NCBI GenBank assembly: GCA_963575745.1
Contig: CAUYUJ010000142.1
Span: forward strand, 1 to 64,000
DNA: 64,000 nt
Source of the DNA: Prorocentrum cordatum
Lineage: Eukaryota
Direction: 5' to 3'
Part shown: one piece after another, positions 9,778 through 63,056 of the stretch
How positions within the stretch are numbered: the stretch's first letter is position 1
How the letters are laid out: each line of letters opens with the position of its first letter
The notes under the pieces: generated by a model
What the model saw: only the letters and a program-made list of their open reading frames with translations
What the model was told of the DNA's origin: nothing
The model's database searches: none
Position numbers and translations under genes: made by a program

Positions 9778-9810
<33 letters not shown>
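9560..9810. repeat. TA/TG/CT dinucleotide repeats
   Basis: Directly visible. Confidence 0.85.
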
Positions 9811-20813: not shown

Positions 20814-20921
20814 CTGGGAGCCGGCGGTGGACCGTCAACCTTGGTTTTTTTTGCGGTTTGCGGTCCGCCACTAGAATCCGAATCCGAATCGGCGGAGCAG
20901 TGCAACTGAGCCCCCACCTTC

Positions 20922-23900
20922 TTAGGTAGGTCGCAGCAGAGCGCACGCCACCTTAGCAGCAGCTCTCGTCAGGGCAGCGCAGGCAGCTAGTTCACAGCAG
21001 GTTACCGTGCTACCTGGAGGCAAGCTCATCGCCTCCTCGGCCACATCGTGCCAGTGGAAGCTCTGCGAGCTGATGCAGGAGGAAGAGGAGGAGGAGGAGG
21101 AGGAGGAGGAGGAGATGGGAAAATCAACCTGCACGCTGGAACCACTACCTAATACGCCAATCTGAAGCCACCACCCGCCTCCACATCCTTCATTACTGAC
21201 ACCCCCATCGAATGCACCACGGAGAGCAGTCTTACGAGTACTGAGGAACTGATCATATGCAAACCAGCGAGTAATAGTTTGGCCACCTCGGGCCTCCCAC
21301 GACAATCTATCCGCACGCTCACTACCCTCACGAAAGAAATGTTTATACAAATTCTGTCCCGATGCAGGTGAGGTCAGTCCCCATCCAGACAACATCGATA
21401 GAGTATTTTGCAGTACTCCCAGCAGTCGTACATACTGCTTGTTACGAATCTGCCACTCAGCACACATCCAGTTAACGACCGTCTTACTAACTCCCAAGAT
21501 TTTCATCCCAGAACGTTCAATACTCTCCCACCTCCACTCCGTTTCATGCTCATAATTAGCGGCAAGACGTTCGCTAATCCTCTCATTCATCTCTCTCTCC
21601 ACCTCCTCCTCCTCCGCCTTCACATACCTCACACCAGGTGGCCTGGGTAAAACAAATAACTCTAACAAGTGTTGCGTGCCAATCACAGTCAGCAGATGTT
21701 TGCAATATTTCTCGCGGGAGCCAGCGGAGCTGTCGAACGATAGGCACCACTCACAACCAAAGAGATCGCACAAACACCAATCCCATACAGTATGTCCACG
21801 GGCGGGGGCACCCATGTTCATGCGTGTGAGATGCTTCCTATCTTTTGAAGGCAACGCAAGAATACATGTGTCCCGATGTTCCGTCCACCTCCCCCTTCCA
21901 TGTAGCATGGTCAGCCTAGATATCATCCATTCACGTGAGATGTCCGACTCCCCGGGTATGGCAGGCTGATCACCCGTTGTCCGCCGTCGACCCCCACTCG
22001 ACATCTGGGAGATTTGGGATGCTAGAGAAGCCGCCGCCGCCGCCATCGCCCGAGTATTTATCTGACGCCGATTTGGCACCGTCTCCACATCCTCCTCAAC
22101 TGTGTGCGTTGTGTACCGCCTCATACGAATACTTGCAGCGACTGAGACATCCTTGGCCCAATCCCAACAACGAGATATCCATATCTGCACCGCACTTCGA
22201 AATCCAAGCTCAACAAACCTCTGCCGTCCAACTTTGGATCGCCTACGTTGAAACTCAGACCATCCTTCAGTTCTCCGCTTGCGTAGACCTGACATCAACG
22301 CCAGGCATCCCCCCTCAAAGAAGTGAACAGCAGCAATGGTGGAATAGTCGGGCGTTCGGCCCTCACAGTTGAATAATAATGCAGCAATCACTTTAGATTG
22401 ATAACGAGTAAATCTCTCAGCCAAATCAATACCAGAGCAGCGATAATAGGCGATTTCCCCAAAGAATACCTTCTGGGCGTTCTGGAGCATGGCCTCTGAA
22501 TCCGAGTGGTCCTTCCTGGTCTCCTCCAGAGTGGCCCCCAGGATCTCAAACGACTGAACACGCGGCAGGACCACCTCGCGGGCCCCGAGAGCAGGATCGC
22601 AAGACGGTGCAGCACACGAATATCCTGTTCGGGGGACGGCGGGATGCCAGGCGGCGCAACAAAGTAAATATACATCAAGGATTCCGGCTTCCAGGTCATT
22701 CCTGCATTCATCAGCGGGATACTCATGTCACGCACCATCAATTCGAGCTCGGAGCGAGTCTTCGCATACAATAAGAGATTATCTGCCCAGAAACTATGGG
22801 TCATACGCTCACCGTTGAACATGCGCTCATCGTTTTCCAACTTGATACCGTACTGCGTATCCTGCCTCCACCTGTCAACCACATCTCTCCAGAGTACGAT
22901 AGATACTGCTAGGAAAACCATCGGCCCCTCCACTCCTCCCGTTCGAATAGACTTGTCCCAATAGACAGCTGAAGATGCCTCGATGCCCTCGAAGCTGGCC
23001 ACACACTGATTATCAATCATGGGTTCAATCAACGCCACAATGAGATCAACTGGTATGTCAAGAGCACGAAGACAGCGCATGGCGAGGCACGGGGTAACAT
23101 TATCGAATGCTTGTAAAATATCAAGATTGGCAAGCCACAAACTGTCTCCTTTGCCCCAGACAGCGGAGTGCTGGCTGAGCCTTTTGGCAACGCTGGTGAT
23201 TTCCGATGTTTTTCGTCCCGATCTGAATCCGAACAGGCATACATAGTGTCGGTGCTTCTCAATCCTCTTCTCAATCATCATCACAATAAATGTCATGTAC
23301 CATATCATAAGACACGACTGTAGACATAGTACACGTGTATCTGTCAAGTGTTGTATGTCCATTTCCTTAGGCATGAGCGTGGCAGCTAGTTGACGCCAAC
23401 TGTCTGGGCAACATAACCTGCGGGAATACACACCATGGAAGCTCACCAGAACACGTCGGAGAGATGCCCACGAGAGCTGTTTCAACATCATGACAGTGAC
23501 GTTGTCGGGGCCTGGGGCCTTTCCCGTGGACAGCTTCGCCCTCGCCCGCAGCAGGAGCGACATCGAGAACACCTCCGAGGACCCACTTCGCAAACATAGA
23601 CCACGCAGCGACTGTAGCTCACGAAGGGTCACCTCCCTGGCCTCGGGGTCCTCAACCTTAGCCTTCATGTGCCCCAATATCTCGCCCCCCCACTCCTCGC
23701 GGTTCTGAGACTCCATCCCGTTGGCAAGGATCAGCGTATCCGTCTTGGCCCTCCTCCTCCTCCTCGTGTTCATCTCCGTCCTCCAGCCTCCCCCTTTCTC
23801 TCCTAACTATATTTGAGTACCGTTTGGCCTCCTCTCTATCCCCACGACGAAGTGCTTCGCGTTTACTTTCCTGGGCGGCCCAGTGGATCTCGGATTTCTT

Positions 23901-25076
23901 TGGTACATTATTTCTGGGATTGGTATCCTTCTGGGGGGTCTCCTCGGCGGCCTTTATGAGGTCAGGTCCTATCATGTCCAACATCTCCCGTCGATCCTCA
24001 GGGCCAGCATCTCCCTGGCACAATGCACGGTAACGACTGCCCCAATCGTCCATGTTCTTCGCAAACTCGAGCTGCGACACCGGTTGCAAGTAGATGAATT
24101 TTCGAGCAGGCTGGGTCCGTCTCTTCGCAGACGGCGCACAAGACAAGCGAACAACTAGGCAAGCGTGGTCAGACAGCGCACGCTCGCATCTGCTGCATGG
24201 GTGCTCCGTCCAGGCGTGGCCCACTTCCGCAGGCAGCATCCAGCCTACAGTGAGCTCCTGCCTGTGTAAACGACGGCTGACACCAACATAGTCAAGTACC
24301 TTCACCACCCCCGTACTTGATTTGAAAGTAACCCCCCTCTGCCCAAATGTGTTCTCCATCCTTATGCCCCAGAGCCCGCAGAAGTCCAGTAGGGCCCTCC
24401 TCATAGATTGCAGCCTAGACGCCCGTCGGATTTCGAAGCCCGAGACAACCCTATGAGGTCTTGATTTACGTGCACAACGTTTTGTTTGAGTCATATACGG
24501 GTTGCCGTCATCCGATCCTTCCTCCATCCCAGTATCCATGTCCGTAGTACCCCCAGCGATCCCAGACGCCTCCAGAAGCCCTGATCCAGTGACTCTGAAG
24601 CCGTTGACCTCCGAATCTGGCTCGAGTTCGACGTTAGCATCTGTCAAGAAGACCAGGTCCTGCGGCTGCTTCGGGAACTTAGACCTATGAGTGCGAAGCA
24701 CTTGGGATTTATCAAACAATATCTGTTCATACACATCATGTTCATGCTGTTCTTCAGTAAGGGTACGAATACTCGCATGCGGCATATATGCAACAATAAC
24801 CGTAACACTAGAATAACTACAAATCACAAAACCTTTGCCACGATATGTGGCCCTGAGCGAGTCTCTCCGAGACTTAGACCTGATCACCGCAGCCTTCCGA
24901 CAAGTACTCCGAAAAATTGTGTGACCTCGCATGTTGAGATCACGAGCTGAAAGGAACTGGCACTCGCACAACCCCGCGAGTCCCACATCTAAGCGACGTA
25001 GTGAATTAATTATGTCATGGCCGTTCTCTGCACCTGCCCGACGCACACTCCATGACGCAATGGCGTCGTGGCACCT
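20922..25076 (-). pseudogene. LINE-A ORF2 (APE-RT-RNase H), broken by two frameshifts
   Basis: APE motifs: IASWSV, LCEC, AYMP, TDANVEL, LDY, SDH. RT motifs: KAPGPD, LDILQAFDNV, SIRTGG, WADN. RNase H motifs lie in 20922-21500. Frame changes near 23765 and 22580. Confidence 0.9.
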
Positions 25077-26624
25077 CTAGTTCGTACTGGAAATCCTCGC
25101 TCGCAACTCATCAATGTTGATCCCTGGCTCAAGCTGACTCATTGCACGACTAATCCCCCAGCAATTCTGAAGAAAGAACTTGGCCACGATCATCCCTGGA
25201 GGGGGTAGGTGATCACTGGAGCCCCACATGAACGTGATCGGCGGTCCCGTCTCAGCCCTAAGATTTGAATGGTGCTTCTTGAAGCTCTTGAACTTTGCCT
25301 GAAGGATCCCAGCGGCATCCAGATGGGGCTTCTTCCAGGGGGGGGCCTCCACGTGAACCTTGAGGGCCCTGGGAGCATGCTGGAGTTTGTTGTCGGCAAT
25401 CGCGGCGACGAGTCGACGACGGAAATCCCACAGCTGGTCACTGGTAACCCGTTTCTGGAAATAGAGCCGAGCACGCGAATCACCACATGCCTCTCGACCT
25501 GTGTTGAACTTCTTGGATTGGTTCAGGTCAAGAAGCTCCTTGACACCACTGAACCATTCTCCAGCAAGGACCTCATTCAGGAGTGAATTCAACGCCTGCT
25601 GCGATGACATCTCCTCCTGACGCTTCTCTGCATCCCGCCAGTCAGTCACCCATCCCTTGAGCTCGACGAATGACGGAGTGAAATTCTGCATGGACTCACG
25701 AGTCTCCGCCGAGGACGCCGTCGTAGAGGTGCCTGCTCTGGGGGGCCCACCTGCAGGAGCCTGCTGGAGCTGAATAATCTGAAGCCTCTGATCCTCCACC
25801 TTCTTAGTAATGGCATATATGTCCGTCATCGCCTGCTGCACATTTTTCTCGACCGAATCAACACGAGCATTGAGCTGGGCGCCGAGATCCGCGATGCTTC
25901 GATGAGAAGACTGGAACCCCTCAGTCATCTTACCTCCCAGAGATGCTACAAGCCCAGTGATCTTATCCATACCCCTAGTCATGGCCTCCTCGAGGCCCTC
26001 GACAGTCTGAACTTTGACACGTTTCCCCTCTGGGACCTCCTCCTCCTTGGCTCCTGGAACGGGCATATCAGTGGCATCCATGGCGAAAATCTCTGGGACC
26101 ACAGCAGCTGATGAGGCAGCCATCTTACCGTCTGAGATGTTGCGAGGGATATCCCACTTCTCACAGAACGATGGATCTTCTCGAGTGCGCTTTAGATGTG
26201 CACCTAACTGATGAAAGTTGTATGGGGCACCAGGATTATGGGGTAGAGTAGGGGACAGATCAGGTGGTCCAGATGGTATGTCAACTAGAGAATATTTATC
26301 GTCGCGACGTGATACACAAACCTGTCTGGCATGATATTCCCACTTCCCAGTGTCCGAAGTTCGATCCCCAGCGGTCCAGATCAATCGATAAACTCTGGCT
26401 CGTCCCGTTGAGCTCGACGCGGCAAAATGCCGCACGCAATGCACACAAACAAATACAAACAAAGCGCAGGCGGCCTGCTTGCCTCGGACTCGCCGAAGTC
26501 GCCGAAGATGCCGAGCGGCCCGATCGCCACGCGCCCCCGCGCGGCAGGCCAGGCCACGGGCAGGCTGCCTGACCGCACAATGCGGCTCGAGCCGCACGAG
26601 AAAGCCCAGAGTTCCCGGCGGCAA
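25077..26624 (-). CDS. LINE-A ORF1 (coiled-coil plus conserved C-terminal domain; start uncertain, first ATG at 26123)
   Basis: Open 515 codons. The motifs PSFVELKGW, VEAPPWK and ETGPP have counterparts in ORF1 of LINE-B and LINE-C. Confidence 0.85.
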   Translation of the reverse strand: MPPGTLGFLVRLEPHCAVRQPARGLACRAGARGDRAARHLRRLRRVRGKQAACALFVFVCVHCVRHFAASSSTGRARVYRLIWTAGDRTSDTGKWEYHARQVCVSRRDDKYSLVDIPSGPPDLSPTLPHNPGAPYNFHQLGAHLKRTREDPSFCEKWDIPRNISDGKMAASSAAVVPEIFAMDATDMPVPGAKEEEVPEGKRVKVQTVEGLEEAMTRGMDKITGLVASLGGKMTEGFQSSHRSIADLGAQLNARVDSVEKNVQQAMTDIYAITKKVEDQRLQIIQLQQAPAGGPPRAGTSTTASSAETRESMQNFTPSFVELKGWVTDWRDAEKRQEEMSSQQALNSLLNEVLAGEWFSGVKELLDLNQSKKFNTGREACGDSRARLYFQKRVTSDQLWDFRRRLVAAIADNKLQHAPRALKVHVEAPPWKKPHLDAAGILQAKFKSFKKHHSNLRAETGPPITFMWGSSDHLPPPGMIVAKFFLQNCWGISRAMSQLEPGINIDELRARISSTN

Positions 26625-29600
26625 TCTTGGTTACCGCCGGGAACTCGTAGAGCGTCCTCCTGGAATGCCAGCGCGACAATCACGTATTCCAGGCGCGCAA
26701 GGGTATAGTTTCATGAAGGCGGACTGGAAGAGAAGAAGGAGTGAGGAGAAAGGAGATGAAGGAGGATAAGAAAAAGAAGAAAGAGCAGGAGGAGGAGGGG
26801 GAGAAGGAGAGGAATGACGAGAAAGGCATCGTGATCTCTGAAAAAAAGTCGGAATGATTTTCTGGTTCTAACTCTGGAAACGTGACAAGTTCAGGCATCT
26901 GGATACGTAAGACTAACGCGTTTGATGATTTCCTTCCGATTGATGTGCCAAACAGCTCTGTAGCTTGTCTGCTGCTCGAGTTAAGTCAAGACAGATACCC
27001 GCATCTCTATAAACATTAGCAGAGCATGAGAAGTTGATCTGACCCAGCTCTGGTAGCAGACCAAGTTTGGGCATTTAGATTATTTAGACTAGTGTGTTTC
27101 CTTTTCCTCTCGACTGCTGTGACAAACAGCTCTAGAACCATCACCATCTCTAGAAAATTAACAGAGTACGAACAGTTTTTCGAACCCGGCTATGGTAGCC
27201 GATCCAGTTCGATACTTCACTAGCGCGCCTGAAATGGTGATAAATGTGCCAGGCAGAAAGAAGTCAATGCGCGTTTGAAGTGGACATAGGCGAGGGCGAT
27301 ATTTAAGAAAGGGAGGTGCACGGTGGAAGAGATCAAGGCGGCCCGTCAACTGAAGCAGAAAGAGAGCAGCTTGCGCAGAAGACGTTCGACGGAGCGCCAC
27401 TTCCGACCAGAAGTACAACCCAGAACACACAAGGTTCCGGGCGGTAAACTGTCAACCTGGCTACCGCCGGGAACCTCGTAGAGCTCTTTTTTTGCGCGGC
27501 GATCCTCGGAACACATGAAGAAAGCTTCTGAAGCGAGAAACGAAAAACTCGAAAAATCACACTTTCTGTTTTTATCGAACGTCGGTTGCTCCAAGTGTTT
27601 TGATAGCTGTACTGCACCTACGGACCTCAGAATTTTGCTGGCAGACGCGGCATAACCCACTGCAGGTGCGAAAAATCACCTTTTTCAAAATGAATGGTCA
27701 AACTGGCACCGGCGGTGAACATTCAACCTGGTCACCGCCGGGAACCTCGTAGAGCTGTGAGAGTGCTCATAGTCGAAGGAGAGAGCTTCTGGAGGCATTT
27801 CTCAAAAATTGCATTGTTTTCATGTCGACATAAAGTTGGTTCCGCCAAGTGTTTTGATAGTAAAAGTGCGCCTACAGAGCTCATATTAAGACGCAGAGGC
27901 CCTCACAGTCGTCCACAGGTGCGAAGAATCTGGTTTCTCAAAATGAATGGTCAAATATCTTTCAAATCTTAGGAAAACCAACCAAAAGTTGTCACATTGT
28001 CCGTTCTGGCCGGGTCGACCAACTGGCTCCACACCGCCGGAATTCCTCTAGCCCATCGATTTCGAAGAGCTCTACGAGGTATATCTTTCAAATCGTTGGA
28101 AAACTGATCCCAGGTCATCTCATTGTCTCTTAATGTCGGGTAACCCAACTAGCTCCACCCCGCGCCGGAATTCCTCTGGCTCACGAGGTACTAGGGTGTT
28201 ACACTGGCGCCGGCGGTGAACCGTCAACCTGGTCACCTCCGGAAACCTCGTAGAGCTCCTCCACGCGTGAGAGTGCTGATAGTCAAAAGAGAGAGCTTGT
28301 CGAGGCATTTCTCGAAAAATTGAACATTGATTTTTTTCATTTCGAGATGAAGTTAATTCCCCCAAGAGTTTTGATGGTGAATGTGCGCCTAAAGAGCTCA
28401 TACTGGGCGACGGCGGTAAACCGTCAACCTTTCTTACCGCCAGGGGACTCGTAGAGCTTCCTGACCATGCATTATGTCGAGAACGAATAGTTTTAGAGCC
28501 CGGGCTGCCAGCAGACTGATCTCAGGCGTCTAGTGATATCCCATTGCTCTGCTCAACAGTTCTATCTCATCTGCAGCGTCTGGAAAATACCTTAGGAGAA
28601 CTTTCGCCTCATGATTTCCTTCTGATTTTTCGGCCGCTCGAGTTCAGCTAAGCAATTCACCATTATTTGGAAGAACGAATACGAAAAAAAATTATGCAGC
28701 TGCCCTGAAGCTCGAGTAAAGTACAGAAAACCGACAGTCCCTGTAGAGATCACTCGAAGGATACGAATAGTTCTGCGAACCCAGCTCGAGTAGCAGACCG
28801 AGTTGAGACCTCTGCATGCAACAGGCGAACGCCTGATGTATCCGAATCGGTTTCTGTAAATACGAGCCCTGTATTTGCCCTGAAGCCCGAGTTAAGTACA
28901 GATAACCGAGAGTACCTCTTAAGATAACTCGAATAATACGAATAGTTCCACACCTAGCTCGAGCAGCAGACCGAGTTCAGATCTCTGGATCCAACAGACA
29001 AACGCGCCTGATGATCCTAAATTCTTTTCTGTTAATATCAGCTCTGTAGCTCTTCTGTAGCTCGAGTTATGTTTAGAAAACCGTCGCCGCGTGTCAAGAT
29101 GACCCGATACGGCCGATCCCGCCGCAGTGCTTTTTGACAGTAATATCTACCTGATCGACCTGAGACTGAGATGACGAGCGGGAATAAGATCAAATATCAC
29201 GAAAAATAATACTAGAGCTTGAACGAATTTTGAATTTCAAGGACGAAATGTTCAACCGACGAAAAGTTAGCAAAAGGTCCGTCGAGGTTTTTCTTGTCAA
29301 CTAGCTCTCCACCGTCCCAGAATTGCTCTTGAGCGTCGAGCAACTAGCTAAGAGAAGCTGTACAATTCATTCAAACGCAGAGGCTCTCATAGTCGTTTAT
29401 AGGTGCGAAGAATCTGGTTTCTCCAAATAAATAATCAAATATACTGGGAACCGGCGGTAAACCGTCAACCTGGTTACCGCCGGGAACCTCGTAGAGCTCT
29501 TTTCTTGCACGGCGATCGTCGAAACACATGAAGAAAGCTTCTGGAGCGAGAAACGAAAAACTCGAAAAATCACGTTTTTCTGTTTCTATCCAACGTCGGT

Positions 29601-37341: not shown

Positions 37342-40300
37342 TCAACCTGGTTTGTTTGTTTGGACTCGCGTTCCCAGCCGAGTGCAGCCGGGCGAGGACC
37401 GGTCCCGCAGAAGCACACGGGCAGCGCTGAGCAGCGCTTCGGCTGCCGACAATTCACATTCTGTGACTGTAGCTCCTTCGAGGAGCCACGCGGCCTCGGC
37501 CACATCCCTCCAAACGAGGGGCACGGCACTAGAAACAGCAAACTCATGCCCAGCAGGGAAGGGGCCCACGGTTCTCGCGGAAGCGATGCCTATCTCACTG
37601 GGATTGCACTGAGTATTGATTAAGCCGATCTGAAGCCAGAAACCACATCCTGATCCTTGCTGGTCAACCCCGCCATCAAAGCCTCCCCTGATAGCGAACG
37701 GTAAGAGATAAGTTTCGAATGGATATAGATAACAATGAGTTCTGTAGAATGTGCGGCCACATCTGGCCTCATGCGTCAATTCATCCGCTCGTGTATTGTC
37801 CTCCCTGAATTCATGTCTCCATATCTCACGTCCCAAGGCAGCAGGCCTCAGATTGAAACACGCAGCGAGCTCAAAGGTACAATCAATCATGGCAGCTGTC
37901 CTCTTGCAGTAGCCACGATTCTCACATCTCCATTTCCCCTGTAGCCAGGAGCAGATAAGTAATGAGTCACCCTTGAACTCAGCAGCAAAACCCTCTGAGG
38001 ATATATCCCACACAGTCGCACGTTCCTGGATCATAGCATAACGTATTGCAAGCTTGGCGGACTCTTTGGGGTCGTACTTGGGGCGCAGAGGGTTGGTCGC
38101 GATGTCGACCGCATCAGTATCGGCCTTCTCTTGAGCCTCAGGGGAGCCTCGAGGTCCATTAGGAGAGCCCTTCCAAGACACCACAAAGTAATCATAGACC
38201 TTAGTTTTGTTGTATTGTGTAAGGAGTTGCTTCCACACCTCCAAGAACTGAACCCAATCGCCCCGTACAGACTCCCACAACTTTTCCCCAAAGAACTGAA
38301 TGTAGGGGAACTGCCAAGACCGACCGCCCACAGACACAGGGCCTCCACGAAGCCGCTTGCCCGAACTAGATAAGGCCCTGTTGCCGTGTTGTCGTAGAAC
38401 CTCTGTTATTGCGTCGCGAGCCGTGACCCAGCCAACATTGTACATCATAAGCGCACGTCGGGAGTCTCGAAAGGCCCTCCTCCCCTTTGAGACGGTAAGT
38501 GGCTCGTCTCTGAGAGTGTGGGCAGCTCCCTCTCCAGAGGGCATCGGCTGTGAGCGGGCAATGGAACAGGCGACCTGCGAGCAAAGATCCTCCAGCCGCC
38601 TCTCCATATCCGTAATCCCCCCCTCCACCTCCATCACAGTCGCTGCAGGTACATCCTCCCCCCGTCCATCCGTAAAGCGAACACGTTTAGCACGTTGAGT
38701 CGTTGATCCCTCCACCTCAACCTCCGTCCTTGCCGTCCTGTCCTCCTCCAAAGATTGTAAATATTGCCTCGTGGAGCGCATCATGCCCCAGCTCTTCCAA
38801 CACAGCATCTGCACAGACGACGTGAAACCCCCATCGCAGAAGATTGTCCTGACTCGTGTCAGCGCAGCTGGCCGCCATACCTCCCACCCCACATCTCCTG
38901 GCTTCCTCCTCCCTGACATTCTCAGAAGACACATACCCTCGAACGCATGGATAACCCTCACACACTCACTGTCAATCGTGATGGCCTCTGCTGCATATAA
39001 AAGACGGCTCTGCACAGTCGATTGATATCGACGAAACTTCTTCACCAGAGGCAGCGCCCTGCACGTAAAATACTGCACCTGCGCAAAGAATGCCCTTCGG
39101 GCCTGCTGGACGCGCTCCTGCACATCCGTGTGGATAGAAGTGAAACTTCTGGGAATCTGATACCCCAGCACATTCAAACTCTCAACATGCTTGAAAGGAA
39201 CAATCCGCGAGCCAATCTGAACCGTGACCGTATCAGTGTACTGAGTACCACACACCATCATCTCTAGACTCTCCTCCTTCCACTCCATCCCCCAATCCCT
39301 GAGAGCAGTAGTGAAGGCAGCGGCCGCTACCTGCGCCTCCGATGCTGACTTGGCGGCCAGAAAAATATTGTCAGCCCAGAGAGCATGATTCCAACGTGCA
39401 TACCGACAATGATCATCATGGCATGGCATCTCGACTCCGACACCGCGCTGATCCAGGCGAGCAATCACATCACGCCACATAGCAATAGTGACAATAGTAA
39501 ACGCGATAGGTGATTCGGTACCCCCAGTACGGAGCGACCTATCCCACTGCACATTGGGGATTGTCACTCCTTCAAACAGCACCGTGCATGAAGTAGATGA
39601 GAGAGGCTCCAATAACGCATACTGTAACCGTGCACTGATCCCAAGGGCCGTCATCGCTCTCGAGACTGTCGGCAACGTCACAGCATCGAACGCCCGCTCG
39701 ATGTCACAGCTGAGGAGCCACGCCGTTTGATCTCGCCCCCATGTGGAAGCATGTTGTGCAATACATTTCATGGCCGATGAAATCTCCCAGCAACGTCGTC
39801 CGCTGGTAAAACCGAAAAACCGCCATTTCACTCATGAAGGGTTCCACACATCGTTCCAGTAAAATCGTCACACACGTGAGATACCACTTGGCCAAGGTAT
39901 TTCCGACAAGCAGGTTCCTTGTTTGTCGCAATGTTTCCAGTTTGCTCGTTTTCGGCATAAGTGTTAGGTATACTGCCTGCCATTCCCTTGGCGTCGGGCG
40001 AAGCCCGTTGGATATATCAGATAAAACCTTACCAATAGAACGCACTGACCTCCACGAAAGAGACTTGAGAAGTTCAACCGAGATGCCGTCGGGCCCACAG
40101 GCCCGTCCTGTTCGGAGCCTGCTCCGCGCCTGCAGAATAGTAGAGTATGTAATCGTAAGTGTGTTGTCCGAAGAGGCTGCTGATTGAGATGCATGGCGAC
40201 GCAGTGTGGACACAAGCTCCCGATTGCGGGCTCTGGAGTCATCACAAGTCATACTCTGCACAGCATATCGCTCCACCTCCTCCGCCCACAGTTCCCTGTC

Positions 40301-41620
40301 CTCCGTCATCAAAGTCGTAGGCCCCATATCCCCTCCCCCAGTGTCCGTCACCCTCAACTCCGTCACACGTGTCCTCCTCCCCTTCCTAGGTGGTAGCGCC
40401 TCCCACTCCACCTTCCGTCGGCGATATTCCCGCGCAAGCGGTCTGATGCGACGTCGAAGGTCCCGAGCCAACGCTCTGTCCTTCCTAGCACGTGCCTCTC
40501 TGAGTTGTACCTCCAGCTCGGCATGCTGAGGAGTCCTACTCGGCGGGAGCCCTCGAGAGTACCTGGGGGCCCTCACCGTGAGGAGCGGTAACGCATGTCC
40601 AGCAATCGTTTCAGCAAGACGTTGTGGGGGCACCGTCGGGATCTGGACGTCCGCCAGGACCTGAAATTGGGCCTCCTCCCGATACGATTGGAACTCTTTG
40701 TGGCTTGTGTGGTGGCTAGGGGGGCCTTGATATTTCGTGACCTGAGGGTTCTGCATATGGAACTCGGCGTAGACACAGGCATGATCCGAGAAGTTGGTAG
40801 TCGGGGTCTCTGGGATCCAATCCGTTCGGCATTCAACCAAGTCACCCTCCCAGGATTGTGGGACCATGAGATAGTCAAGCACTTTTGGCGCAATAGTCTT
40901 CGCCCCAGACTTGCGTCGAGCATTATTCGCACGATGCGCGAAAGTCGGCTGCCGAGAGCACGGCGAGCCAAGAGAATTGACTGCCAGCAAGCGCATCCGA
41001 CACAGCCACTCCTGCAGCTGAGATCGCCACATGTCCTCCTCCCACCGTCTATCCTCCGTATCATTCCCATATCCCCTCCCGTCGAGAATCTGCACAGCAC
41101 CTCCAGTCACCGTGCCTCCTGAACAGGTGATGTCGGGCGCAAGCTCAACATTAAAATCCCCTGCAATCACAAGCTCACATGTGTATCTGCATTCCTCCTT
41201 CCACCTCCGATAAGTTGTTTCGATTGTTTTCAGCATCTCAAAAGCCACCTCCAATGAACGATTCTCCGATCTGTTCGGAAAGTACGCAGAGACAAGAAAG
41301 ATACACGGATGACGCAAGCACACAATAGCAAGACGAGCATGATTACTCCAAGAGCGAACTATGTTGTGACAAGACTTCCCCCTCAAAGCTATGGAAGCCT
41401 TCCTGTCACTTGAATAAACTAGGTGCCAGCCAAGCAGCTGAATTGAATTGGACGGTAAGTGTTCACACTCCTGTAAACAGAACACTTCACAGCCGTGAGA
41501 AAGAAGTGCCCTCATGCAAGCAAATCCCCGATCTGCTGTAGCCCCTTGTTTCATAAGATTCTGGGTGCCTAGCCTATGCTGGGCTGTGGGGCCACCAGCC
41601 CGACTGGCACCTCTGCACCG
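37342..41620 (-). pseudogene. LINE-B ORF2 (APE-RT-RNase H), one frameshift near 39830
   Basis: APE motifs: LGTQNL, CLQE, SAYFP, GDFN, LDY, SDH. RT motifs: ACGPDG, CDIERAFDAV, SLRTGG, WADN. RNase H motifs: GDS, REDNTRAD, FDGG, TECE. Confidence 0.92.
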
Positions 41621-43409
41621 TCACACCCTGCCGGCAAGACTCGTAACAAATGTGTCGTATGTAGTCGTCACACCGCTTCGCATAAGTACCCCCTCCCAGA
41701 TCTCGCGGTCCACTGTCCACCCCGTATTGATACGAAAGGATGCCAGTTCCACGGGTCGATGCTGAGGGTCCTGCGGCTTGGTCCACATTGTGCTCCGTCC
41801 GTTGGGTCCCGATCCTGGCTCCCCCCTGATCTCCATGGCCTCACTGTTGGTACACTCGCGGTATGTCCCATAGAAGCGCCCCACAGCCCCGATATGATCA
41901 CGTTTCCAAGGTGGGGCCTCTATGCGTACGCGGACCCGACTGGGTCGTTGTAACATGCCCTGGAACATGCTGTCATAATCTGGAGGTGACCTCGAAACCT
42001 GAGCCGCATTCCTTTGGGGATTCGGAGTTAAAGCATCATCAAAAGCACGCTTCACGTTGTATAATGTCGAAGAGTCGGTTCCTACAATGAATTTGATTTT
42101 GATCGTACTCAACATCATTCTACTTCCATTCATACGTAATGTGCCCTCGTAGTCGATCCTAGCTTCATCCTCTGCTGCGATGGCCGTCTTCAAATTAGTG
42201 ATGAATTGTGCAGCGTCCGTGTCTCTCATCATACTGGCCGAACGTGCAACCGCTGTCCCATTCCAGTCTGTCCAGCCTGTGAGCTCCACATAGCTGGGAC
42301 TGAAACTGGAGGGTCCTGAGAGTCCTGGTGGGCCCCCTCCGTAGGAAGGTGCCGTAGTCGAGGCTGCACCTGATATCACACTGGGGTTCTTCTTGAGATC
42401 CTGCATCTGTCGTTCCAAGTTGTTCATCCTGATGTCGGAGGCCTCCTGACGATTCGAGATGCTCTGAATATCGGCCCTGATTTCGACGTTTTCTTGTTGC
42501 CTAACTTTGCTCTCAAGCACGTTGAGCTCCGCGAAGGCCTTGAACCAGGATGGGGCCTCGTCCGAGACCACACTGAGTTTCTTTCGCTTCTCCTCGAGTT
42601 CTCCCAAGAGTGCCTCGTGAGGACCGTTGACACGATGTTTGACATTTCGTTGGGCATCGTCGCTAACACCCTGCATACCCTGACGCTCCCCAGCACCTTC
42701 AGGGACAACAGCCGCTTGGGCCGCCGCCTGTTGTGCCTCCGTGGGCATACCTGGGGGTCCCCCTAGAGCACCTTGTGGAGCTGGGCCTCTAGGAACAACA
42801 GGAGCGCCTCCAGATCCTTGACCTCCAGAACTGACCTGACCTACTGGAACCCCTCCCGCACGCCCTCCGTTGGTTGTAGCTCCCGCCACAGCTGCGTTGG
42901 AAGGAGTCTGCATCATATTCATGAGTCCTGTATTCATATTCACAAATGAAGGTGGGACAACACAATGGCTATCACTATCTGGTGTGGAGTCGGCAGTATT
43001 CAATCTCCCGTCCAATGGAAGGTCACGTACAATCTGCTCGGTATCCTGAATTTGCCTCTTCCGAGATGCCCTCTCAACAGCAGAATCTGGTCTCTGTCCG
43101 TAATCCTGTGAGTACTGCAAATATGGTACAGTCAGGGAAATATCCTCCAGCTGGAAACGTCTCGCAAGCACTGAAAAGTCGTACCCGTCCGTCTTTGCAC
43201 ACACGACAAACAAAACAACAATTACAGCACACAAAGCAGGCGGCCTGGCTTGCCTGGAAGATGCCGTACTCGTCGATGGCAGCGATGGCCGCCGCGCCGC
43301 TTCCCCGCGGCGCCGACACCCCCTGAGCTCCTGTGGGATCCAGGAGCCCTAGAGCCGAGATGTCTTGAGCTCTTTTCTTGCCCAGCTCCTAGACCTCGTA
43401 GAGCTCTTT
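37351..43409 (-). mobile_element. LINE-B: full-length non-LTR retrotransposon
   Basis: Splits the hairpin ccggcggtaaaccgtcaaCCTGG | CTTGGctaccgccgg (37346-37350 and 43410-43414). It has a (CAAA)n tail and ORF1 plus APE-RT-RNase H. Confidence 0.93.
41621..43234 (-). CDS. LINE-B ORF1 (start uncertain)
   Basis: Open 537 codons with a coiled-coil-like stretch, then PSYVELTGW and IEAPPWKRDH. Confidence 0.85.
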   Translation of the reverse strand: MCAVIVVLFVVCAKTDGYDFSVLARRFQLEDISLTVPYLQYSQDYGQRPDSAVERASRKRQIQDTEQIVRDLPLDGRLNTADSTPDSDSHCVVPPSFVNMNTGLMNMMQTPSNAAVAGATTNGGRAGGVPVGQVSSGGQGSGGAPVVPRGPAPQGALGGPPGMPTEAQQAAAQAAVVPEGAGERQGMQGVSDDAQRNVKHRVNGPHEALLGELEEKRKKLSVVSDEAPSWFKAFAELNVLESKVRQQENVEIRADIQSISNRQEASDIRMNNLERQMQDLKKNPSVISGAASTTAPSYGGGPPGLSGPSSFSPSYVELTGWTDWNGTAVARSASMMRDTDAAQFITNLKTAIAAEDEARIDYEGTLRMNGSRMMLSTIKIKFIVGTDSSTLYNVKRAFDDALTPNPQRNAAQVSRSPPDYDSMFQGMLQRPSRVRVRIEAPPWKRDHIGAVGRFYGTYRECTNSEAMEIRGEPGSGPNGRSTMWTKPQDPQHRPVELASFRINTGWTVDREIWEGVLMRSGVTTTYDTFVTSLAGRV

Positions 43410-44280
43410 CTTGGCTACCGCCGGGGACCTCGTAGAGCTCTTTTCTTGCCCAGCTCCTCGGAACACGTGAAGCAAGCTTAAGCGAGAGCCAAAAAACTTT
43501 AAAAAAATCGATCGCATACACATAGTTTTGCGGACTTAGCTCGAGAAGCGGACTTTGTTCAGAGCTCTAGATGCTTCAGCCAAACGCCCTTGATGATTCT
43601 GTATCGGTTTCTGTGCGTACCACCTCTGTAGCTGTGCTACAGCTAGAGTTAAGTGCAGAATACCGACAGCGCGTCTAAAGAGAACTTGAGAAATACAACT
43701 AGTGTTGTGGACCTAGCTCGACTAGCAGAACGAGTTCAGGCCTCTCGATGCAACAGACGCAAGCGCCTGGTGATACTGAATCAGTTTATGTGCGCACCAG
43801 CTCTGTAGCTCCTCTGAATCTTGAGTTGAGTACAGAAAACCGGCATCACTGGTGAAGATGACTTTTACGGACCTAGCTCGAGTAGCAGACCGAGTGCAGG
43901 CCTCTGGATGCAACAGTCGAACGCGCCTGATCATTCTGAATCGGTTTCTGTAAGTATCAGCTCTGTAGCTCTCGAAATCTCGAGTTAAGTACAGAAAACC
44001 GTGAACGCGTGTCAAGATGACTCGGAACGCAGTTGGTTCCAGCAAGTCTTTTGATAGTAATATTGCAGCTACGGACCTGAGAATTCAACTGGCAGACGCG
44101 GCATAACCCACTACACGTGAAAAAAATACCGGTTCTCAAAATGAATTGTCAAATATCTTTCAAATCAAAGCAAAACCGACCCAAGGTTATCACATTGTCT
44201 CTTTTGGTCGGGTCGGCCAACTAGCTCCACCCCGCGCCGGAATTCCTCTAGCTCATCGCTGCCGAAGAGCTCTACGAGGT

Positions 44281-45538: not shown

Positions 45539-48500
45539 CTGGCGCCGGCGGTGAACCGTCAACCTGGTCACCGCCGGGAACCTCGTAGAGCTCCTTTCAC
45601 GCGTAAGAGTGCTCAGAGTCGAAAGAGAGAGCTTCTGGAAGCATTTCTCGAAAAAGGGAAAAAATGATTTTTTTCGTGTCGACATGAAGATGGTTCCGCC
45701 AAGTGTTTTGATGGTAAAAGTGCGCCTACAGAGCTCATACTAAGACAGAGAGGCCCTCATAGTCTTTTACAGGTGCGAAAAATCTGCTTTCTCAAAATGA
45801 ATTGTCAAATATCTTTCAAAAAATTGCAAAACCACCCAAACTGGGCGCCGGCGGTAAACCGTCAACCTTGGTTACCGCCGGGAGACTCGTAGAGCTTCCT
45901 AGCTCGACTTAAGTTGAGAAAACCGACAGCACCTACCAACATTCCGACTCATAGTGAATATTGTTTGACCTCTCAATGCGACAGGCGGACGCGTCTGATG
46001 TCTGCGAATCGACTCCTGTCATTACCAGCCCTGCAGCCCCCCTACAGCCCGAGTTAAGTGCAGAAAACCGACAGCACCTCTCAGGATGACTCGAACAATA
46101 CAATAGTTTCGCAGACCTGATTCGGGCAGCAGACCGAGTTCCGAGCTCTGGATTCGACAGGCGGACGCGCCTGATGTCTTGAAATCGATTCCTGTGACCA
46201 CCAGCACTGTAGCCCCCCTCAGCGCGAGTTGAGTGAAGAAAACCGAGAGCACTTCTCAAGATGACTCAACCAATACGAATAGTTTCGCGATTCTAGATCG
46301 GGCAGCAGACCGAGTTCAGAGCTCTCGATTCGACAGACAAACGCAACTGATGATTCTGAATCAGTTTCTGTAAATATCAGCTCTGTAGCTGTCCTACAGC
46401 TCGAGTTAAGTACAGAAAACCGAGAGTACCTGTCAAGATGACTCGAATAATACGAATAGGTTTGCGGACCTAGCTCGGCTAACAGACCGAGTTCAGACCT
46501 CTGGATTCAACAGGCGAACGCGCCTAATCATTCTACATCGATTAGCTGTGCTTACCAGCTCTGTAGCTGTCCTAAAGCTCGAGTTCCTCAGCTCGCTAGC
46601 TTAGTGGAAGATCTCGACGAGTCAAGTTACCAACTTTGTCCTTTCTGGTCGGGTCGAGCCAACTAGCTCCACCCTGCGCCGGAATTCCTCTAGCTCATCG
46701 ACGACGAAGAGCTCTACGAGGTACTAGCTCCACCCTGTCGCCGAATTCCTCTAGCTCTTCTACCATCAGAGCTCTACGAGGCATTACTCTTAAGCTTCCA
46801 GCAACTAGCTAAGGGAAGCTCTACTGGGCGCCGGCGGTAAACCGTCAACCTTGGTTACCGCCGGGAGACTCGTAGAGCTTCCTAGCTCGACTTAAGTTGA
46901 GAAAACCGACAGCACCTACCAACATTCCGACTCATAGTGCATATTTTTTTGCCTATGAATGCGACAGGCGGACGCGTCTGATGTGTGCGAATCAACTCCT
47001 CTCATTACCAGCCACGCAGCCCCCCTACAGCCCGAGTTCAGTGCAGAAAACCGACAGCACCTCTCAGGATGACTCGAACAATACAATAGTTTCGCAGACC
47101 TGATTCGGGCAGCACACCGAGTTCCGAGCTCTGGATTCGACAGGCGGACGCGCCTGCTGAGTTCAAATCGATTCCTGTGACCACCAGCACTGTAGCCCCC
47201 CTCAGCGCGAGTTGGTGAAGAAAACCGAGAGCACTTCTCAAGATGACTCGACCAATACGAATAGTTTCGCGATTCTAGATCGGGCAGCAGACCGAGTTCA
47301 GAGCTCTCGATTCGACAGACAAACGCAACTGATGATTCTGAATCAGTTTCTGTAAGTATCAGCTCTGTAGCTGTCCTACAGCTCGAGTTAAGTACAGAAA
47401 TCCGAGAGTTCCTGTCAAGATGACTCGAATAATACGAATAGGTTTGCGGACCTAGCTCGGCTAACAGACCGAGTTCAGACCTCTGGATTGAACAGGCGAA
47501 CGCGCCTAATCATTCTACATCGATTAGCTGTGCTCACCAGCTCTGTAGCTGTCCTAAAGCTCGAGTTATGTTCAGAAAACCGTCAGCGCGTATCGAGATG
47601 ACTCGAAACGGCCGATCCCGCCACAGTGCTTTTCGATAGTAATATTCACCCGATCGAGCTGAGATCAAGATGGCGAGCGGGAATAAGATCGAATATCACG
47701 GAAAAAACTAGAGCTCAAACGAATTGTTGAATTTCGAGAACAAAATTTTCAACCGACCAAAAGTCAGCAAAAGTTCCGTCGATATTTTTCTTGCCAACTG
47801 GGCGCCGGCGGTAAGCCGTCAACCTTCCTTGCCGCCGGGGGACTCGTAGAGCTTCCTGAGCATATATAACGTCGATAAAAATTGCAGAGAACGAATAGTT
47901 TTTCAGCCTAAACGATTTCAGACCTCTCGATGCAACAGTCTCCGAATCGATTCCAGTGCTTACCAGCCCTGCAGCCCCCTTACAGATCGAGTTGAGTGCA
48001 GAAAACGGACAGCACCTCTCAAGATGACTCGACGAGTACGAATAGTTTTGCGAACTAGCTCGGGCAGCACACCGAGTTCCGAGCTCTGGAATCGGCAGGC
48101 GAACGCGCCTGATGTCTCCGAATCGATATCTGTGAGTACGAGCCCTGTAGCCCCCCTACAGCCCGAGTTAAGTGCAGAAAACTGTCAGCACCTCTCAAGA
48201 TGACTCCAACAACACGAATACTTTCGCGAACCTAGCTCGGGCAGCAGACCGAGTTCAGACCTCTAGATGGAACAGACGAACGCGCTTGATGATTCGCAAT
48301 CGATTTCTGTGAGAATGAGCTCTGTAGCTGCCCTACAGCTCGAGTTAAGTACAAAATACCGACAACGCGTATCAAGATGACTCGAAACAGCCGATCCCGC
48401 CGCGATGCTTTTTTGCAGAAAAATTTACCCGATCGAGCTGAGATTAAGATGGCGAGCGGGAATAAGATCGAATATGGTCAGAGAAAAAATAGAGCTCCAA

Positions 48501-51926: not shown

Positions 51927-52977
51927 TGACTCGTAGAGCTTCCCTAAGCTAGCAGCTGGAAGCTTAAGAGTAATTCGGACGCACTGGCGGGCTAGTTGGG
52001 TCGAAAAATCTCGACGGAACTTTTGCTGACTTTTGCTCAGTTGAAAATTATGTTCTCAAAATTTGAACATTCGTTAGAGGTCTAGTATTTTTTCCCGTGA
52101 TATTCAAACTTATTCCCGCTCGCCATCTTGATCTCAGCTCGATCGGGCACCTTTTACTGCCAAAAAGCACTGTGGCGGGATCGGCCGTTTCGGGTCATCT
52201 TGACACGCGATGACGGTTTTCTGAACATAACTCGACTATAGGACAGCTACAGAGCTCATACTTACAGAAACGGCTTCAGAAACATCAGGCGCGCTTGTCT
52301 GTTGAATCCAGAGCTCTGAACTCGGGCTGCTGCCCGAGCTAGGTTCGCGAAACTATTCGTATTGTTGAGTCATCTTGAGAGGTGCTGTCAGTTTGTTGTA
52401 CTTAACTCGGGCTATAGGGCGGCTACAGGGCTGGTAATTACAGGATTCGATTCAGAGACGCGCCCGCCTGTCCAATCGAGAGCTCGGAACTCGGTCTCCT
52501 GCCCGAGCTAGGTCCGCGAAACTATTCGTGTTGTTCGAGTCATCTTGAGAGATGCTGTCGGTTTTCTGCACTGAACTCGGGCTGTGGGGGGGCTACAAGG
52601 CTGGTAATCGCAGAAATCGATTCGGAGACATCAGGCGCGTCCGCCTGTCGAACCCAGAGCTCGGAACTCGGTCTGCTGCCCGAGCTAGGTCCGCGAAACT
52701 ATTCTTATTGTTCGAGTCATCCTCAGAAACGCTGTCGGTTTGCTGCACTCAACTCGGGCTGTAGGGGGGCTACAGGGCTGGTAATCACAGGAATCGATTT
52801 GAAGACATCAGGCGCGTCCGCCTGTCGCATTCAGAGGTCTGAACTGGGTCTGAGTGAAATCGCTCGGGCTGAAAAACTATTCGTTCTCTGCAGTTTTTTT
52901 CGACATTATATATGGTCAGGAAGCTCTACGAGTCCCCCGGCGGCAACAAAGGTTGACGGTTTACCGCCGGCGCCCAG
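51927..52977 (+). mobile_element. Complete family-A HINE-like element in the opposite orientation
   Basis: tgactcgtagagcttccc ... ggaagctctacgagtc, followed by the hairpin ccggcggcaacaaaggttgacggtttaccgccggcgcccag. Confidence 0.88.
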
Positions 52978-57170: not shown

Positions 57171-57671
57171 TAACTCGTAGAGCTTCCATTAGCAAGTTGT
57201 TGCTGGAATCTTAAGAGTAATAACTCGTAGAGCTTCCCTCGGCAAGTTGTTGCTGGAAGCTTAAGAGTAATAACTCGTAGAGATTCCCTGAGCAAGTTAT
57301 AAGATGTGGAGCTTCCTTAGCTAGTTGCGGGAAGCTTAAGGGAAATTCCGGCGCGCTGGAGAGCTAGTACCTCGTAGAGCTCTTCGGCATCGATGAGGTA
57401 GAGGAATTTCGGCGCGGGGTGCAGCTAGTACCTCGTAGAGCTCTTCGGCATCGATGAGCTAGAGGAATTCCGGCGCGGGGTGCAGCTAGTAACTCGTAGA
57501 GCTTCCCTTAGCAAGTTGTTGCTGGAAGCTTAAGAGTAATACCGGCGCGCTGGAGAGCTAGTTCGCAAGAAAAATCTCGACGGACCCTGCGCTGACTTTT
57601 GGTCGGTTGAAACTTGGTTGGGTGTTGGGGTCGGCTACACAGGGCGCGTGCGCCCTAGCCGTGCAGAGTCC

Positions 57672-60600
57672 CTAGGGTCCCTCACGCCCTCTCAACCTCT
57701 TTGGGGTTGGAGGCCCGATGATCTCAGAGATAATCTGCCGAACACCTTGGAGCAGGCGTTCACAAGCTGTGAGCTCGCTATCTGTAACAGTGGCCCCCAG
57801 AGGGAGTAAAGAAGCCTCCTGGAAAACTCGTCGCCAGTGGTTGTCCCCAAATGAGACCTCCACATAGCAACCTAGAGCAGAGCCTTCAACACTCACGCCA
57901 CCGTCCCATCCTCCACGGATACGTTTGATACAATGTCTCTGTTGTCGCAAATATCTGAAGTCAATCCATCTTCCCGTCCTTCCCCTCCTCGCCTCCCAAG
58001 TCAACTCATCCGCAACACAATTGAACTCTCTGTAGATATGCTTCCACGGATCCGTCCCTACAGTGGCACACCTGATGTCGTAATCCTCAGCAAGTTGATT
58101 CATATCGTTTTGTAGACCATGCACTCTCCTGCGGTACGAACGATCACGGCATTCCCAGATCCCTCGGGCCCAGTTCACCACACACATACTATCACCAGTC
58201 ATTTCAACCAACAATGAGCCCTCCGAGCCCTCCTGCCAGACAGTTTCGTTGTTATATCCGTGGGCAATACTACGAGCGAGCCTGTCGGAGTCCTCAGGGG
58301 AGCCCCACGTATCCACAGGACAAGGAGCACAGGGCGGTTTCCTGAAGATGGGCTCCCATCGAGGCTGTATTTTTGTCACGCACGCAACTACATTCCACCA
58401 GTCCGTCGCATTCCACTTGATGCTGAACCAGCGTAAATTACCACTCGCCGCCAGCATAAGACAATGCCAGCTGTCAGTGCTTGCATGCGCTCTCCCTCCC
58501 ACTCTCCTCGTACCTTCCCTCCTCCTGGCTCCCGTGAACATGGATACAAGTGTGTCCCTCCGTAGTGACCATTCCCCCGCACAGTGTAACATGGCCTGAG
58601 GCGTCTGGCGCCAGGCTCGTGCTCCACGCATGTCCGTGGAGGCGAAGGCCCGATCATGAAACTGGGCCAGCTCCAACGCAAACTCGAAATTGGCTCGGAC
58701 CACCTTCTCTAGGAGACTGCAGTGGCCAGCCTGCAAGAATAGCTCGTAGGACTTCGGTGTGGTCCTGTCCCTGAACTCCTCCCACGTCTCCTCCTCCCTC
58801 TTGTGTAATCCTCGCATACCGTTGAGACACCTCCCCTCCCAGACCTTAATCCTCTCCAGCAGTCGTAGATTGCACGGCCAGCCTATACATCCGTGGCACA
58901 CCACAGACTGCACACGAGCGGCATACCTGCGAAACTTCTCTTTGAGTGAGACCGATCCGGAGCGATAAAACTGGATGTCAGCAAAATAGGCCTTCCTCCC
59001 TTTCTCCAGTCGATGATACAAGCCGTGATAACCTTTGATTTCCGAACTGAGCTTCACTCCTAGTACCTCCACCTCCTCCTTCCTCGGCATTACGACAGTC
59101 GAGCGCAAGTGCTCTGGGAGATCCTCATCTCCAGAAATCGCACAGATGGCTGGCGAGAGCGGGCAGAGCAGCGGCGGATCGCCACATGTGTACGTCTGGC
59201 CAAAAAGTACATACGCCAAAGAATCCTCCTTCCAGTCCATCCCTGCCCGTCTGAGTGTTACCGTCATCATACCGATCATCTGTTGTAGCTGGAGTTGCGA
59301 TGCAGCACAGAGCGTAACATTGTCCGCCCACAAGAAGTGGTGTACAAGAGCACCGTCCGTCCCCTCCCCTTCCAGTCGGACACCGTATCCTAAGGTATCC
59401 CAAGTCTGAATCACAGATCCCCAGATGGCCTCCAAGACAATATTGAAAAGTATAGGTCCCTCCTTACCTCCCGTTCGGACCGATTTATTGTATCTCACCT
59501 CATCGCCGCACACGTTCTGAAACTCAAAGGTAGCAATGTTATCCAGCATGGGCTCCACAATGGCTCTAATGAGGCACACAGGGTACTTAAGGTACAGCAT
59601 GGCCTTGATGATAGTGCGCAGTGTGACATTATCGAATGCTTTGTGTATGTCCAAGACTCCCACGTGCATAGACTCCGCCTTCCCCCACACATTTGCATGT
59701 CTAGTAAGATGTGATAGTGGTGCCGTGACGTTAGTAACCTTCTGATCCTTCTCAAATCCGTATGTGCACAACCGTCGGTTCACAGGAAATGCATCAATAA
59801 ACTGCAACACACATGCCATGTACCATTTACTCATCACACTGATCAGGCAAATCCCTCTGGTGTTGGAGAGTCGTGTAGCATCCCGCATCTTCGGCACAAG
59901 TTGGATACTGAGCTGCCTCCACGTCTCAGGGCTGGAGGCTCCCTGCTCGAAAATCCTCTGGAAAGCACGCCGCACAAACAAGAGGCTCCTCCACGGCAAC
60001 TCACGAATGACCTCAGCAACGACTCCATCGCTACCGGGTGCCGTGCCAGGCTTCAAAGACGCACGAGCCTGCATGAGCATGCCCATCGTGATGACTCTTC
60101 CCTCCACCCCACGGTCGTTGTGTCTGAGTTCCTGAAAGGCCTCCAAAGTCCGTTTTTCCTCCTCCGAGTTCGTGTAAGACGCCGTCGCATACCTAGTGAT
60201 CTCCGTACTCCACCTAGTCCTGTCCATTGTCAGCACACCCTCACACTCCAGCTCCTTGAGGATACACCGTGAGGTCTTACTGGATCCCTTGTGGTCCTGC
60301 AGGAGTTGGTTCCTCCTATGCTGTCTCCTAAGGGTCTTCCTCCTACGCAGCAGTTGTTTACGGGCATTCCCAAGGGCCCCACGCCTGATGGCAGACTCCA
60401 CCTCTATGAGCTCCCTGGGCCTCTGAATAGGTTTGCAGTTGGGGCGCCCCTTGGCGTGGTCCACAAGCTTTGCCGTCTCCAAGAGTACCCGTCCGACCTG
60501 CTGCAGGTCCGCCCCTACCGTGTCCGATGCAAGCCCCTCAATCGACACATCCGCAAGCACACGAAACATGTTCCTCGCCGCGTCATCCGTCGGCTGCCAG

Positions 60601-62970: not shown

Positions 62971-63056
62971 ACGCTAGACGCCTGTGGGATCCAGACGCCT
63001 TGATCCAGACTTGAGCCAAGAGCGTCCAAAACCCGGAGAGCAAGCCTTGATCCAAA

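Follow-up and report, generated by a model that had tools for sequence, protein, structure and literature searches.

The first 64,000 nucleotides of contig CAUYUJ010000142.1 of Prorocentrum cordatum (assembly GCA_963575745.1), referred to here as the window, contain four retrotransposon copies, E1 to E4, three of which encode a reverse transcriptase (RT) with an atypical active site. E1, E2 and E3 are full-span elements within a region of nested host repeats, and each consists of a first open reading frame (ORF1) and a second (ORF2) that combines a putative apurinic/apyrimidinic-type endonuclease (APE), the RT and a ribonuclease H (RNase H) domain. Their ORF1 products are mutually homologous (21–27% identity, E 2e-10 to 1e-30), the element bodies are single-copy by self-BLAST of the window, long terminal repeats (LTRs) are absent and the 3′ tails are A/C-rich. 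The Pfam family RVT_1 scores above its cut-off in all three RTs (E 3e-10 to 3e-13); Exo_endo_phos falls below its cut-off, with E 0.014 in E2, 0.006 in E3 and no match in E1, and the LxE, DY and SDH endonuclease motifs are visible in all three ORF2s. By these sequence features, E1 to E3 are members of the APE-type non-LTR retrotransposons, or long interspersed nuclear elements (LINEs). No methyltransferase family of Pfam was matched by any of the three ORF1s at E 0.1.

The atypical feature of these RTs is motif C of the active site, which reads WADN in all three in place of the (Y/F)ADD that is usual for, but not a defining trait of, the LINE class. A preliminary description of the window had located these three motifs, and had read motif B as S(I/L/V)RTGGxE(G/S)P and motif A as a normal DIxxAFD. 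The positions were exact and the motifs were found as described in every copy, with the minus strand, absent from that description, to be added. The accompanying remark that the WADN codons differ synonymously applies to the Ala and Asp codons but not to the Asn codon, which is AAT in E1 to E3 and in L001, a relative from a metagenome. Alignment to the solved R2 and L1 proteins pairs RTGG with RQG(D/C), and WADN with the R2 motif YADD, and R2 and L1 account for all sequence matches of the RT in the PDB (10/10). For an AlphaFold model of the E3 region from the RT to the end of the protein, with a mean predicted local distance difference test (pLDDT) score of 79.8, the 14 top-ranking Foldseek rows are likewise R2 and L1 RTs (E 1e-12 to 7e-10). 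The literature searched, with subscription journals, Repbase and supplements outside its scope, held no description of a WADN-type motif or of a clade that carries it.

A profile built from five WADN RTs matched 36,163 representatives at E 0.001, and the best 150 were examined. The resulting 172 domain rows from 158 proteins comprised 75 WADN, 29 WADD, 22 FADD, 8 YADD, 5 FADN and 3 YADN motifs, together with 10 others and 20 rows without the motif. Removal of rows lacking motif A or C, or shorter than 190 residues, left 143, from which a tree was built without the two trait columns. A single branch with a Shimodaira–Hasegawa-like approximate likelihood ratio test (SH-aLRT) value of 100 gathers 114 of these 143 rows, 86 with motif C ending in Asp-Asn (DN) and 28 in Asp-Asp (DD), and within it an all-DN branch of 62 rows (SH-aLRT 95) holds E1 to E3. 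The D/N state is clustered, requiring 6 changes on the tree against 44.7 in shuffles, 2 of them forced by the starred branches. Across the clade, the motif-A Asp is kept in 114/114 rows and the first motif-C Asp in 113/114, and the DN rows keep the motif-B Gly (86/86) and the fingers Arg (71/71 rows covered). Comparison with known non-LTR clades, which the preliminary description had proposed as a check, was run as a quick tree with further LINEs added; here the clade, represented by 26 rows (SH-aLRT 100), falls outside a 21-row L1/Tx1-like branch (98) that includes a rat L1-like protein and zf-RVT proteins, and on this tree it would thus not belong to L1/Tx1.

The nearest outgroup rows mostly combine Lys/Arg with DD, and the fitted model contains gains of Asn only. 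In one tree, however, two DN rows are the first to diverge, and the trees do not show Asn to be ancestral. Two motif-B residues were considered as partners of the Asn. Thr replaces the motif-B Gln in 19/87 DN rows, Gln being kept in 66/87, and Thr occurs solely with Asn (19/19); since Gln persists in the majority of Asn rows and the query favoured both motifs, no link between RTGG and WADN is claimed, and RTGG was set aside as a partner of WADN. The motif-B Glu was rejected as a replacement carboxylate, Glu or Asp being present at this position in 55/86 DN and 18/28 DD rows alike. In an outgroup RT with FADN (P0126), the second residue ahead of the motif-A Asp is itself Asp; this may be an independent origin of Asn, with the carboxylate possibly relocated to the adjacent strand.

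The RT cores of E1 to E3 share 32–40% identity, with proportions of synonymous differences (pS) of 0.73–0.86 against proportions of non-synonymous differences (pN) of 0.43–0.51, so that WADN is not a matter of chance; their synonymous sites have reached saturation. With L001, which is 58% identical to E2, added, all six pairs show the same relation (pS 0.69–0.86, pN 0.32–0.51), and purifying selection on the E1 to E3 RTs is supported by these comparisons. E3 was also compared with contigs of 4 runs from 4 studies. Its extra base at 60631/2 is missing from the contigs of three runs (X5, X6 and X7), the remaining one (X1) being without depth there. Among 40 listed differences between E3 and the contigs (97 more are unlisted), 33 lie in the long ORF2 frame and divide into 20 synonymous and 13 non-synonymous changes, for an expected synonymous share of 23–30% (P 4e-6 to 3e-4). 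The contigs of all four runs span motif C of E3, and none of the listed differences falls within it. Intact DN ORF2s exist elsewhere, with 1216 amino acids in P0177 (about 50% identical to E3), 1306 in P0007 and 1455 in P0008, which has YADN; they lie on contigs mostly 4–6 kb long. The best-matching runs are marine and freshwater metagenomes and coded organisms. A metagenome scan for the flanks of relatives gave two short loci without element ends, and a scan of viral sequences for relatives with flanks gave no match.

All columns were scanned in the 114 rows for a partner of the D/N state, and the best is the residue two before the motif-A Asp, here called A-2. Lys occupies it in 21/28 DD rows against 0/86 DN rows, and Lys or Arg in 26/28 against 0/86; the window copies have Asn (E1), Ser (E2) and Val (E3). 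The link is seen in every one of the larger DD groups, and Val, Ala and Ser are the A-2 residues of the three DN rows that stand among them. When 7 near outgroups are added, the 121 rows divide into 87 with Asn and no basic residue, 31 ending in Asp with Lys/Arg, 3 ending in Asp without a basic residue and none combining Asn with Lys/Arg. A-2 ranks first of 201 columns (phi 0.94, Pagel likelihood ratio (LR) 33.9), the runner-up being Lys/Arg at A+3 (phi 0.67, LR 24.7), where E1 has Gln, E2 Arg and E3 Lys. In null simulations with the Lys trait evolving independently, on two trees and under two rate models, 0 of 1887–3996 replicates reached the observed phi. Rows held out of the analysis read Lys/DD (P0188), Arg/DD (P0190), Gln/DD (P0189), Ala/DN (L001) and Ser/DN (L002). 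One 19-row DN branch (P0002, P0010, P0012, P0055 and relatives) has Ser at A-2 in 19/19 rows. Strand geometry and HIV-1 RT numbering suggest that the third acidic residue may be within reach of the A-2 side chain. This covariation of A-2 Lys/Arg with the D/N state is the new element of the present analysis. Telomerase has Lys at the same position (K710/D712 in human, K249/D251 in Tribolium; accessible text of PMC6581908), and in the corresponding text of PMC11760216 the human K710 is described within the sheet that positions the catalytic triad, K710R lowering activity and processivity.

The C-terminal domain of ORF2 contains the two halves of RNase HI in swapped order, and the canonical order was not encountered. 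Half-profiles that match the canonical protein P0208 in reverse fall at 1195–1246 (E 3e-5) and 1256–1324 (E 8e-8), and in P0177 at 1043–1117 and then 1140–1203, so that circular permutation is shown at the level of profile matches. Pfam RVT_3 covers the second half alone (profile 55–119 of 123). The RNase H model has a pLDDT of 93.5; order-dependent fold searches recover RNase HI weakly and over about half of the domain (3u3g, Z 3.7, root-mean-square deviation 4.7, 82 aligned residues, model 12–103), below unrelated rows at Z 5.2. The four acidic catalytic residues are intact in 32/33 complete DN and 10/10 complete DD domains, the exception being E1, in which the Asp of the GDS motif is Val. 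Because these residues are intact in DN and DD forms alike, the permutation is independent of Asn, and no suppressor of the type known from Ty1 is visible; compensation through a damaged RNase H was accordingly rejected at the residue level. Atlas clusters of relatives contain solely RVT_1, RVT_3/RNase H and unnamed rows, tblastn for a canonical RNase H in phages and plasmids returned nothing usable, and no row of the 19-row DN branch has an RNase H match, several having long C-termini.

E1, E2 and E4 share one insertion site. The 3′ ends of these three of the four insertions lie at one identical base in the loop of a GC-rich host hairpin, reached by an A-rich tail in E1 and E4 and a CAAA-type tail in E2, and 26 empty copies of this target lie between 27440 and 55035; the chance of each further insertion at the same base is roughly 0.2–0.4%. 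The site of E3 differs from that of E1 and E2 but also has CCAAG. The hairpin comes after a short inverted-repeat motif and before varied sequence, which we take to be the arrangement expected for the 3′ end of nested Helentron-like repeats. In the empty copies, a motif of ~60 nt is made up of a short inverted-repeat word, the GC-rich hairpin and a CCAGT end, and the reverse-complement word often starts the next unit. The preliminary description had spoken of full-length copies with target duplications; the elements do span their full length, but all are frameshifted, and the duplications, besides being short, are in part ambiguous. That of E4, which would be ~30 nt, is far longer than those of E1 to E3, and the edges of the elements are uncertain because the A/C-rich tails resemble the target. 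At the 5′ junction of E2 the upstream target sequence is duplicated, and the tandem pieces of it at 43360–43455 (minus strand) could be a trace of template jumping as reverse transcription came to its end.

On this evidence, E1 to E3 probably represent an unnamed LINE clade whose RT, with Asn in the third position, would still polymerise with two Asp residues as its sole metal ligands. That the DN enzyme is active is very likely, and the preliminary description's view of a selected variant of an active enzyme is upheld by purifying selection, the all-DN branch, intact DN ORF2s and intact RNase H residues, although its own argument is weaker, since none of the window copies is intact and their duplications are short. 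In the mechanism proposed here, the motif-A Asp and the first motif-C Asp would be the two metal ligands. The A-2 side chain and the third acidic residue would project from one face of the palm sheet, and the third position may be kept charge-neutral in two ways, by an Asp–Lys/Arg ion pair or by Asn with a small neutral residue, in which case Asn would not be crippling, unlike Asn placed alone into Ty1 or Ty3. Whether this Lys/Asn switch is the reason the DN enzyme works we judge to be about evenly balanced. By analogy with other LINEs, the APE would nick at CCAAG, mostly in the hairpin loop of the host repeat, the A/C-rich tail would prime target-primed reverse transcription, and removal of the RNA would fall to the permuted RNase H.

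Several points weigh against this reading. In the accessible text of the respective papers, Ty1 D211N abolishes transposition (PMC2148107) and Ty3 D214N is lethal in vivo (PMC5371799), and none of the four window copies is intact. The sampled proportions are not a census, because they derive from the best 150 of 36,163 matches to a profile itself built from WADN proteins. The A-2 column and the Lys/Arg class were picked post hoc among 201–260 columns, and the simulation bound, once corrected for about 200 columns, comes to only about 0.05–0.1. Resolution of the tree is poor: the starred branches provide 1 independent contrast and all branches together 5–6, numbers that do not suffice for a sign test. 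Among the 34 D-ending rows of the 121-row set, 3 lack Lys/Arg, as does the held-out P0189, and canonical LINEs have DD with Phe, Ser or Ala at A-2, which means that Asp does not need Lys in general.

The same observations could be accounted for by DN enzymes that are active but slower, with Asn as a tolerated or favoured attenuation and the Lys/Arg pattern as a by-product of shared ancestry. Such a reading is in keeping with the slow or poorly processive Asn mutants of Ty1 and Ty3, with the lowered replicase activity conferred by the birnavirus ADN motif (as far as the accessible text of PMC9752661 goes) and with the small number of D/N switches on the tree (5–6); the basic residue at A+3 also covaries, which indicates that lineage effects are strong. 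It sits poorly, however, with the lack of any Asn row with Lys/Arg among 87, with null simulations on the same trees that never match the association and with the rank of A-2, first of 201 columns and a position that the telomerase papers, in their accessible parts, put in the catalytic sheet; nor is rescue of the Ty1 type by RNase H damage seen as a loss of catalytic residues. We regard it as unlikely.

Two further accounts were considered. In one, the DN RTs have no catalytic activity and persist because of endonuclease, RNase H or RNA-binding roles, with DD relatives copying their RNA in trans. The loss of the canonical carboxylate and, in the window subclade, of the motif-B Gln, the DD relatives within the same clade and the broken state of all window copies speak for it, but the DN rows retain the other two Asp residues, the motif-B Gly and the fingers Arg, an inactive site would not retain Asn over 62 families under 50% identity, and no DD element lies within the 64-kb window; this account is improbable. 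In the other, WADN arose by decay after insertion, through a CpG-favoured G-to-A transition at the Asp–Asp junction, or by assembly error. The Asn codon AAT of all four DNA copies is indeed one transition from GAT, 2/4 are preceded by GAC, and the copies are frameshifted. The other 2/4 are preceded by GAT and so offer no CpG, which led us to reject CpG decay, and decay or error in general is opposed by the Asn of intact ORFs from independent assemblies, by the strong clustering on the tree and by the four runs whose contigs cover the E3 motif with no change among the listed differences, leaving it scarcely credible.

The coordinates of the elements and of their main features are collected in Table 1.

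Table 1. Features of the LINE copies in the window and of their insertion target.
Feature	Position	Strand	Details
Element E1	20847..26625	minus	ORF1 frame 25077-26630; ORF2 APE-RT-permuted RNase H split over three frames (two frameshifts, ~23790 and ~22630); inserted within hairpin loop; 7-nt target duplication 26632-26626 / 20846-20840
Element E2	37352..43409	minus	ORF1 frame 41621-43348; ORF2 with one frameshift (~39815); hairpin site identical to that of E1; target duplication imperfect, 4-6 nt
Element E3	57619..63053	minus	ORF1 with stop 61699-61701; ORF2 with one frameshift (60631/2); candidate 9-nt duplication 63062-63054 / 57618-57610
Element E4	18535..19852 (approximate)	minus	decayed, 5′-truncated; thumb and permuted RNase H only; no motifs A-C; possible ~30-nt duplication
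E1 motif A Asp and A-2 (Asn)	23120..23128	minus	Asp at 23122
E2 motif A Asp and A-2 (Ser)	39703..39711	minus	Asp at 39705
E3 motif A Asp and A-2 (Val)	59649..59657	minus	Asp at 59651
E1 motif B	near 22945	minus	same replacements as E3; RTGG starts at 22945
E2 motif B	near 39531	minus	same replacements as E3; RTGG starts at 39531
E3 motif B	59448..59486	minus	Thr for Gln and Glu for Leu; RTGG starts at 59477
E1 motif C	22778..22789	minus	WADN
E2 motif C	39367..39378	minus	WADN
E3 motif C	59319..59330	minus	WADN
E1 permuted RNase H	20949..21509	minus	
E2 permuted RNase H	37414..37986	minus	
E3 circularly permuted RNase H	57729..58214	minus	four acidic residues present
Example empty target	46820..46885	minus	GC-rich hairpin of host repeat

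Other features of the window were observed around the elements. The 5′ regions of E1 to E3 (26450–26570, 43210–43345 and 62860–62995, minus strand) have in common a GC-rich block and, after it, a GT-rich one, in elements that are otherwise unalignable as DNA; the blocks have no Rfam match and may be a promoter or an RNA structure. Rfam over 16000–64000 gave 8 matches, all under their gathering scores, and no ribozyme. Near the 5′ end of E3, positions 63019–63010 (minus strand) match the 3′ terminus of the spliced leader of dinoflagellates over 10 nt, a match too short to use. Upstream of E3, a long inverted repeat at 63145–63558, about 78% complementary, is the source of sub-threshold Rfam matches to miRNA families. 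A satellite-like subrepeat of 175–177 nt forms short arrays inside the host repeats between 16900 and 53000, and positions 1–13700 contain GC-rich tandem arrays with units of 9–12 nt and about 102–122 nt, in which two ORFs were scanned and gave no Pfam match.

The role of the second Asp of YxDD has been open since the Asn mutants of Ty1 and Ty3 polymerised yet failed to transpose. In the clade, Asn and Asp forms occur naturally alongside each other, with intact genes for each and one candidate compensating residue, so that a four-protein double-mutant cycle would address the question directly; A-2 is Lys in telomerase too, where a patient variant lowers activity. In a broader synthesis, which we put forward tentatively and with a little less than even confidence, a large, old and still-mobile clade would have repeatedly turned a three-Asp site into a two-Asp site through a two-residue charge switch (Lys/Arg with Asp to a neutral residue with Asn), a natural solution to a mutation lethal in Ty1 and Ty3. 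Instead of binding metal, the third Asp would then balance charge and handle pyrophosphate, and the enzyme would come together with a circularly permuted RNase H and with an endonuclease directed against the hairpin of another transposon. There are also practical consequences. Annotation demanding YxDD would label such elements dead, and the usual domain and fold searches detect only one half of their RNase H. New RT enzymes might also be obtained from a LINE that combines site specificity with an unusual active site.

Compared with known systems, the window elements resemble APE-type non-LTR retrotransposons, such as that encoding human L1 ORF2p, in having an ORF1, an APE-RT ORF2, no LTRs, a simple 3′ tail and a 5′-truncated copy, and their best sequence and fold matches are the RTs of L1 and R2. 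They differ in having WADN for (Y/F)ADD, RTGGxE(G/S)P for RQG(C/D)PLSP and a C-terminal permuted RNase H. Insertion at one site of another repeat is known from Tx1L in Tx1D and from other site-specific APE LINEs of the Tx1 and R1 clades; unlike Tx1L, the window elements are placed on a different RT branch, as judged from the L1/Tx1-like rows compared, and target a hairpin loop. SymbioLINE of Symbiodinium provides a precedent for APE-RT LINEs with target duplications in dinoflagellates, but in a comparison by description the window ORF1s lack the DNA methyltransferase (DNMT) of SymbioLINE-Dnmt, and the accessible SymbioLINE text mentions no WADN or permuted RNase H (PMC5890265).

A survey of bacterial RTs records DD variants alone in its accessible part (PMC4244168). 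Telomerase reverse transcriptase (TERT) resembles the DD members of the clade in combining Lys at A-2 with a DD motif C (PMC6581908, PMC11760216); the accessible parts of these sources report no Asn form and claim no ion pair with the third Asp, a contact that we infer here. Natural xDN motifs in working polymerases are found in the ADN of birnavirus VP1 and the GDN of negative-strand RNA viruses (PMC9752661, accessible text), but these are RNA-dependent RNA polymerases, and the birnavirus motifs follow the order C-A-B. The same substitution of the third Asp is present in two engineered mutants, which polymerise in vitro. According to the text available in each source, Ty1 D211N is still an active polymerase, but its kpol is lowered 223-fold, it prefers Mn, and it has lost transposition, which RNase H suppressors rescue to 5–10% (PMC2148107), and Ty3 D214N keeps activity with lower processivity (PMC5371799). 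Unlike in these mutants, the Asn of the clade is natural and fixed in dozens of families, and the RNase H residues are intact.

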